Notes under the pieces: model-generated | Told to the model about the DNA's origin: nothing | What the model saw: only the letters and a program-made list of their open reading frames with translations | The model's database searches: none | Assembly (NCBI GenBank): GCA_964016885.1 | Contig: CAXHJY010001726.1 | Coordinates: 1 to 37,747, forward strand | Reading direction: 5' to 3' | Length of the DNA stretch: 37,747 nt | From: Eledone cirrhosa | Taxonomy: Eukaryota | Translations under genes and position numbers: made by a program | Shown: piece by piece, positions 4,716-4,980 of the stretch | Layout of the letters: each line of letters starts with the position of its first letter | How positions within the stretch are numbered: the stretch's first letter is position 1

Positions 4716-4980
4716 TAGAGGTAATTTATTCCGGGTTGAATCGGAGGTAACCACAGTAAGTAAGGTACTCAATACATTGCAGAGTATAAAAGTTTTAATA
4801 TCGATGAGATTCTACAGGACTAGAACTGTTTCATTCTTTAGAAATCATCAGGAATCTGGCTTTCCAAAAATAAATGTTGTGCTATTTATATCTTTTCAGG
4901 GGGTAGGGGGGGGGAGTGGCATGGGTGGAGGTCATTGGTTGATAGAAAAGGGAATTCATTAAAAGCTAATTCTTTAAGGC
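4716..4980 (-). mobile_element. Hammerhead-bearing interspersed element, family A (putative Penelope-like pseudo-LTR remnant)
   Basis: 4730-4836 aligns by eye with 25408-25516 (CCGGGTTGA.TCGG...TAACCACAGTAAGTAAGGTACTCAATACAT.GCAGAGTA...TTCTACAGGACTAG.ACTGTTTCATTC). Flanked by (TA)n and contains a type I hammerhead motif. The Penelope-like assignment is inference. The right boundary is approximate. Confidence 0.65.
4807..4857 (-). ncRNA. Minimal type I hammerhead ribozyme motif
   Basis: Minus strand: AGAUUC-CUGAUGA-uUUCuaaaGAAu-GAA-ACAG-uucuaguc-CUGU-A-GAAUCU. Stem I is 6 bp and perfect, stem III is 4 bp, the core is intact, and the cleavage triplet is GUA (cut between 4813 and 4812). The first stem II pair is a U.U mismatch. 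Confidence 0.85.

Follow-up and report, generated by a model that had tools for sequence, protein, structure and literature searches.

The hammerhead motif and its neighbours in the window

The window, which is the whole 37,747-nt stretch of Eledone cirrhosa DNA analysed here, carries on its minus strand at 4857-4807 a 51-nt type I hammerhead motif in which a descriptor scan finds all core letters and the cleavage triplet GUA. It reads, in order, a 6-bp stem I, CUGAUGA, U, a stem II of 3 bp capped by a 4-nt loop, U, GAA, a stem III of 4 bp capped by an 8-nt loop, GUA and the second strand of stem I. Numbering from 4857 as +1, the 5′ strand of stem I lies at 4852-4857, the core box C3 U4 G5 A6 N7 G8 A9 at 4845-4851, the U·U at 10.1/11.1 with stem II and its loop at 4833-4844, the core G12 A13 A14 at 4830-4832, helix III at 4814-4829 and the 3′ strand of stem I at 4807-4812 (all minus strand). 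The A15.1-U16.1 pair and H17 are present as well, and the three helices (6, 3 and 4 bp) leave helix I open, as expected of type I. Hammerhead numbering places the predicted cut after A17 of the GUA, between 4813 and 4812 (+45/+46), so that the core, stems I and III, cleavage triplet and cut site all agree with the original prediction.

With a stricter descriptor (at least 6, 3 and 3 bp) the window gives five matches; 200 local dinucleotide resamplings gave 0.005 on average, and only one of them contained any descriptor match. A chance origin of the motif is therefore excluded. The covariance-model search that had been proposed as a check did not recover what the descriptor found: an Rfam scan of 4716-4990 at E values up to 10 returned no hammerhead, and for the whole window the best 150 of 404 rows are all microRNA-like matches to simple repeats. 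We conclude that the 51-mer is a genuine type I hammerhead motif, whose cleavage is predicted from its sequence. As such it is ordinary, since hammerheads in the pseudo-LTRs (pLTRs) of Penelope-like elements (PLEs) are already known.

Descriptor matches also support the earlier statement that other hammerhead families, unrelated in sequence, lie in the same window. A third type, whose stem II is long and whose stem III has 8 bp, is found at 25028-25109 (plus strand), and another family, presumably the one first called family B, has three copies at 28652-28717 (minus), 34727-34788 (minus) and 34928-34993 (plus); the two at 34.7-35.0 kb are inverted relative to each other, as is typical of Penelope-like insertions. 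Tandem arrays occupy 29665-30761 (48-nt units), 35607-36374 (196 nt), 21329-21886 (137 nt) and 940-1213 (137 nt).

Stem II consists of only three base pairs (UUC/GAA) under a 4-nt loop, and beneath it the motif has a U·U in place of the G10.1-C11.1 pair typical of type I hammerheads. The U·U had been suspected of weakening activity in this particular copy. That idea fails, as the U·U is the state of the family: it is found in 43 of 44 scorable tail-anchored copies and, by eye, in 96 of the first 100 core-pattern matches listed, none of which has G-C. It is also common in Hydra-clade hammerheads. In PMC8557442, which enters this state as canonical for PLEs of the Hydra clade, 14 of 26 Hydra hammerhead rows (two of them identical, and one family entered twice) show U following A9 and U preceding G12, and this makes the U·U a trait of the clade. 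The axolotl hammerhead HHR_Amex2 likewise has a U·U at the foot of helix II, and it does cleave, the monomer by 22% in an hour and the dimer better (PMC7229834). There is, then, a class of U·U-closed hammerheads that Rfam misses. The 3-bp stem II is kept in 42 of the 44 copies, and loop 2 varies between subfamilies, with 10 different loops in the 44; this free variation argues against a fixed tertiary contact of loop 1 with loop 2.

The parent element and its copies

The motif sits in a 270-nt island that 39 other genomic sites match over its length at 93-95% identity (1,802 search candidates, 40 scored). Two loci run from the tail of the island into an open reading frame (ORF). Among nine ORF-linked loci, picked for their open frames, eight have a 713-codon ORF flanked by two hammerheads that share a strand and are spaced 4.8-6.3 kb, and the ninth has a 684-codon frame. 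The second hammerhead of the eight intact copies lies downstream, past a long TA/TG-rich region, and their ATG comes 181 nt after +1. The layout of the parent is thus pLTR, 713-codon ORF, microsatellite-rich 3′ region, pLTR.

The 713-aa protein is a single-ORF product in which a reverse transcriptase (YRDD motif) is followed at the C-terminus by an endonuclease of the GIY-YIG type (VY..YIG motif). It has RWR at 38-40 (the last residue is K in 36 of 50 relatives), DKT at 116-118 in place of DKG, a CxCX5C linker at 566-574, and CxxC at 666-669 and CxH at 694-696 around a conserved E and N. RWR/K, DKT, YRDD, CxCX5C, YIG, CxxC and CxH are all conserved in an alignment of 50 sequences that includes 49 of the 120 homologues listed. 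Pfam gives weak support: its GIY-YIG model scored E 2e-4 on the C-terminal frame (below the cut-off) and 0.07 on the whole protein, the Pfam search for a reverse transcriptase gave no match to the protein, RVT_1 scored E 9e-6 on a homologue 39% identical to it, and sequence and profile searches of the PDB found nothing significant.

These motifs, on which the clade membership rests, support a young Hydra-clade PLE as the parent. Of the other Hydra features, a preference for (TA)n (84 of 100 tail-anchored insertions end in it), a hammerhead in the pLTR, a tail and inverted 5′ copies (59 of 100 have an inverted arm) are all found, and the defining features given in section 11 of PMC8557442 match those seen here: one ORF of roughly 710 aa containing RWK-type, DKT, CxCX5C, CxxC and CxH motifs, (TA)n targets and a type I hammerhead near the 3′ end; Hydra-1_Obim and Penelope-n_HM are elements of this clade. 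The original prediction of a ribozyme from a Penelope-like pseudo-LTR is thereby upheld and narrowed to one clade, with intact parents in hand. The Eledone element differs from most Hydra-clade PLEs of PMC8557442 in its unit, 4.8-6.3 kb with a long microsatellite 3′ region as opposed to less than 3 kb, and in its loop 3, 8 nt as opposed to 1-3 nt. Its hammerhead and protein start also differ, by eye, from those of the octopus Hydra-1_Obim (PMC8557442), making it a different family. The Naiad clade, which (TA)n targeting brings to mind, was rejected, as the endonuclease here is C-terminal and Naiads are without canonical hammerheads. No paper on this family was found in a literature search outside Repbase, Dfam and most subscription papers.

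A search of the genome for GIY-YIG domains led to other PLE families, and none of the 20 loci examined has this hammerhead; the 10,596 candidates point to many further Penelope-like families, and several other hammerhead types were seen at the loci examined. We also note that intact elements (L141 at 3,100-5,200, and L140-L147) carry 2-3.5 kb of TA/TG microsatellite of varying length in the 3′ region, so that the family itself may spread much of the microsatellite of this genome.

The window copy, at 4720-4985 on the minus strand, runs from about -128 to +138 relative to stem I and is best described as a 5′-truncated solo pLTR of this element. It belongs to an ORF-linked subfamily, being 93-95% identical to L272, L283 and L268 (141/148, 245/264 and 247/266 positions). 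It keeps the TATA box and ribozyme, has no ORF and no partner hammerhead nearby, and is probably an inert product. It stands alone between (TA)n tracts and is not repeated in tandem as the units of non-LTR retrozymes are. Family copies generally have a fixed 3′ end in (TA)n and a variable 5′ end. An exact pattern over core and helix III matches the genome 19,578 times (10,763 + 8,815; control 0), and the forward-strand excess of about 1,950 is probably due to the satellite array on C28 described below.

A second insertion at 25407-25565, identified by sequence match, is of an older subfamily (L249 type) and is a head-to-head inverted mini-insertion that ends inside stem II. The copy at 25.5 kb had been cited as a second copy of the same family. 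The family assignment stands, but the ribozyme is incomplete: the copy consists of inverted 47-nt arms (25468-25514 and 25519-25565), and the CUGAUGA box is in neither.

Insertion ends and the candidate transcription start

Upstream of the motif a TATA box (4883-4890, minus strand) lies 33 nt before stem I, and a CCAAT-like box, present in most subfamilies, lies at -81 (4934-4938, minus strand); both would be promoter elements. The TATA box is kept at 29-33 nt before stem I in subfamilies that are 74-100% identical in protein, while the spacer diverges, and only a few single copies have it at 20-27 or 37 nt. A TATA-plus-core pattern has 5,493 genome matches compared to one control match. Position +1 (4857) is a purine and nearly always follows two pyrimidines, which makes the first base of stem I a candidate start site.

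The 5′ ends of insertions bear on this directly. A 24-nt word of the tail has 14,004 genome matches, and the first 100 of these, all within 41 Mb of contig C1 and including at least three near-duplicate pairs, were taken as a sample and their 5′ ends mapped against two natural copies. Fifty-seven are of the young subfamily and fit the references; the 43 older ones, left outside the count, likewise pile up near +4, at the point where they cease to match the reference. An inverted second arm is found in 37 of the 57. Their furthest reach falls at -1 to +5 in 27 and at -1 to +10 in 34, and 17 continue into the promoter. Counted by arms, 56 of 94 end at -1 to +10, where about 4 would be expected from the rate at +11 to +41; at +42 to +48 there are 5 of 94 (2.7 expected, P 0.14), and exactly one at +46. 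Because the arms pile up at -1 to +10 and not at +46, the templates had an uncut hammerhead and ended at +1. Thus, the element RNA probably starts at stem I, and uncut RNA is likely the usual template of reverse transcription; cleaved RNA as the main template finds no support in the arm ends. This agrees with a lizard PLE, for which unprocessed RNA is the main template in vitro (PMC11167929). The D. virilis Penelope, with an internal promoter that lacks a TATA box (PMC2377424), counts against a TATA-driven start. In a literature search outside most subscription papers we found no TATA-directed start at a PLE hammerhead, and the available text of PMC8557442 describes neither the TATA box nor this start position for Hydra-clade PLEs.

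It seems rather improbable that the pile-up reflects something other than a transcription start, either fold-back of cDNA through the complementarity of stem I or a 3′ splice site, with AG at +1/+2 after a U-rich tract. One young insertion (L120) does have the exact junction that fold-back would make, with an inverted arm to +1 and a forward arm from +46, but it is the only one among the 37 inverted young insertions, and in most of these both arms end near +1. As for splicing, the D. virilis Penelope has an intron that ends at helix I (PMC4209133); against this, no shared upstream exon is seen by eye at the Eledone junctions, and one subfamily has GG in place of AG while its TATA distance stays at 30. 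A 3′ splice site at +2 was accordingly rejected as the main cause of the pile-up.

On the other side of the motif, the tail (4720-4806, minus strand), which serves as 5′ UTR in intact elements, contains the places where element 3′ ends map. These cluster at about +60 to +73 and +135 to +140 and would mark two starts of reverse transcription. Anolis Poseidon PAc likewise has two internal reverse-transcription start sites that define a tail, priming on both DNA strands, uncut RNA as template and its hammerhead upstream of the tail (PMC11167929). The PAc ORF starts inside the hammerhead (PMC11167929), whereas the Eledone ATG comes well after stem I begins. The part of the tail at 4720-4770 (minus strand) is the most conserved and, read on the opposite strand, looks like strong 5′ splice-site words; on its sense strand we take ACUUAC to be U1-like. 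This part may be a protein-binding site.

Pairing of two copies, the two pLTRs and the C28 satellite

As a monomer the 51-mer is not predicted to fold well, its hammerhead fold (-4.2 kcal/mol) lying above the minimum-energy fold (-7.6), and with 20 or more downstream bases the predicted probability of stem I is at most 0.02. Helix III tells a different story. The original prediction pointed to the palindrome CUAG in loop 3, and indeed the 16 nt of helix III form a near-palindrome centred on CUAG that could make 12 bp between two copies, with -12.8 kcal/mol for the duplex compared to -1.4 for the hairpin of one copy (4 bp and an 8-nt loop); in the older subfamily with ACUAGU the duplex reaches -15.2. 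For natural adjacent units the double hammerhead is at -15.6 kcal/mol and two monomers at -8.8, with a minimum of -21. In the two-unit RNA the predicted probabilities are 0.9 for the outer stem I, 0.7-0.9 for the shared helix III, 0.1-0.2 for the inner stem I and at most 0.05 for stem II. By this modelling the near-palindrome favours pairing of two copies, and a single ribozyme is predicted to be almost inactive, with cutting expected mainly from paired copies. The minimal hammerheads of PLEs are similar in lying in pLTRs and having a palindromic helix III region, and a dimer model and a circular template have been proposed for them (PMC4209133); the Eledone motif differs in its 4-bp helix III, short helix II and missing G10.1-C11.1. 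PLE hammerheads are known to cleave weakly (PMC4209133), and of nine frog retrozyme dimers one cleaved (bioRxiv 2026.07.22.740005).

Variation among 16 hand-picked, related, promoter-bearing variants shows what has been kept. The core is invariant except at N7, and loop 2 varies. Covariation of stems I and II had been suggested as a check, and it was borne out for stem I only: in pairs 1-51 and 3-49 both partners differ between variants (8 cells; 0 of 500 shuffles), while no two-sided change occurs in stems II and III of these variants. Since the variants are related, the two-sided changes in stem I correspond to about two events.

That the motif is a catalytically dead relic throughout the family appears very improbable to us. 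Such a reading would account for the weak predicted folding, the U·U closure and the 3-bp stem II, and in the C28 satellite mutations hit the core at the same rate as the remaining sites (79/1432 compared to 203/4117). Yet the core does not vary between active subfamilies, changes in stem I are compensated, and the U·U is shared with published Hydra-clade hammerheads (PMC8557442) and with an axolotl motif that cleaves (PMC7229834).

The upstream pLTR of the intact elements raises a separate problem. It reaches at least 600 nt upstream of +1 in five of the eight, and -589, -300 and -75 in the others. In all seven informative elements its best match among the eight downstream pLTRs is that of the same element, by a narrow margin in two (L144 is too short to be informative), and the two pLTRs within an intact copy share private variants. 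A linear RNA starting at +1 cannot supply the upstream pLTR, and so either a circular RNA or a strand transfer is needed. The sharing of variants fits the two equally. A circle made by double cleavage and ligation, allowing more-than-unit copying, was proposed in PMC4209133.

On balance we think the following reading probable, though by no means secure: the motif is the pLTR hammerhead of a young Hydra-clade PLE and likely the first 51 nt of the element RNA, nearly silent alone and cutting when two copies pair through the palindromic helix III, with reverse transcription mostly on uncut RNA and an occasional circle restoring the promoter. Pol II would start the RNA at +1, and protein-primed reverse transcription at (TA)n would begin at the two tail sites, +60 to +73 and about +135 to +140. 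Mostly it would proceed on uncut RNA, from the tail to run-off at +1. Starts in the 5′ tail would give mini-insertions, and also head-to-head insertions if priming occurs on both DNA strands. Those in the 3′ tail would give 5′-truncated pLTRs, and the window copy would be a downstream-tail start halted after 128 nt of promoter. From time to time the two hammerheads of a read-through RNA, 5′ and 3′, would pair and cut, the middle piece would be ligated into a circle, and more-than-unit copying of this circle would restore the upstream promoter missing from the linear +1 RNA. Rare dimer-dependent cleavage could instead merely inactivate the RNA; we prefer the circle route.

A less probable reading, but one to be taken seriously, keeps the same element and start and has the promoter restored by LTR-like strand transfer through the repeated +1 to +140, the hammerhead being only a protein-binding structure or a brake that, by cutting, deprives the 5′ copy of its cap or the 3′ copy of its priming tail. 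Strand transfer explains the shared pLTR variants equally well with cleavage unneeded, genomic copies come overwhelmingly from uncut RNA, and hammerhead mutants of PAc show no reduced insertion in vitro (PMC11167929). By itself, though, it leaves the self-complementarity of helix III across subfamilies unexplained, and tandem hammerheads are known to yield circles in animals (PMC7229834). The role of PLE hammerheads is still open (PMC8557442, PMC11167929); regeneration of the promoter by cleavage and a circle, if true, would explain why PLEs keep them. According to the footprints, most copies come from uncut RNA that begins at the ribozyme, and full-length copies need more-than-unit copying. 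As a young family with intact copies and thousands of footprints, this element makes the choice between circle and strand transfer directly testable.

The hammerhead part of the pLTR has also become a satellite. An array on C28 from 30,496,748 to about 30,873,750 covers 377 kb with about 4,830 units of 77-78 nt, each with one hammerhead, and thus has the tandem organization of non-LTR retrozymes. The unit corresponds to about -13 to +64 of the pLTR, so the TATA box is absent. All 24 interior samples (0.5-1 kb) and two interior 10-kb blocks are filled with units, from which we infer continuity in between, and higher-order repeats of 1-6 kb are present. Core and stems are kept in 254 of 493 sampled units, 113 of which are identical to the window 51-mer; the core diverges by 5.5% and the rest of the unit by 4.9%, and at such equal rates no selection on the satellite core is visible. 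The left end of the array lies inside an inverted insertion of the element, and an 8-unit piece is found on C1. A junction pattern built on a joint between units seen in public contigs has 1,522 genome matches, all on one strand; among the 100 listed, 98 are on C28 and 2 on C1. The array could conceivably be an assembly error; the joint is also present in those public contigs, which come from a single study and are not necessarily independent of the assembly.

Like non-LTR retrozymes and the satellite 2 of newt and axolotl (PMC7229834; bioRxiv 10.64898/2026.07.22.740005), the array has one type I hammerhead per unit, here in a pLTR-derived tandem. The animal retrozyme preprint reports, for 35 genomes, units of 51-972 bp with at most 300 in tandem (bioRxiv 2026.07.22.740005); the roughly 4,800 units on C28 are more than ten times the largest number in its text, and its supplementary tables could hold larger arrays. 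No cephalopod hammerhead satellite turned up in a literature search outside most subscription papers. In this array the conversion of a pLTR into satellite DNA can be traced, the junction at which it arose being still visible. More speculatively, and with considerable doubt, this element might be seen as a ribozyme-built counterpart of LTR elements: transcription from an external TATA promoter would begin at the first hammerhead base, double cleavage dependent on dimers, together with circularisation, would regenerate the promoter, and the derived 377-kb satellite would chop any read-through RNA into 78-nt pieces or minimal circles.

To the right of the array (L351 from about 2,750), and also at L141 6,240-6,900, lies another retrozyme-like tandem repeat, with units of a few hundred bases and a different hammerhead, which also has a U·U under stem II and an ACUAGU helix III.
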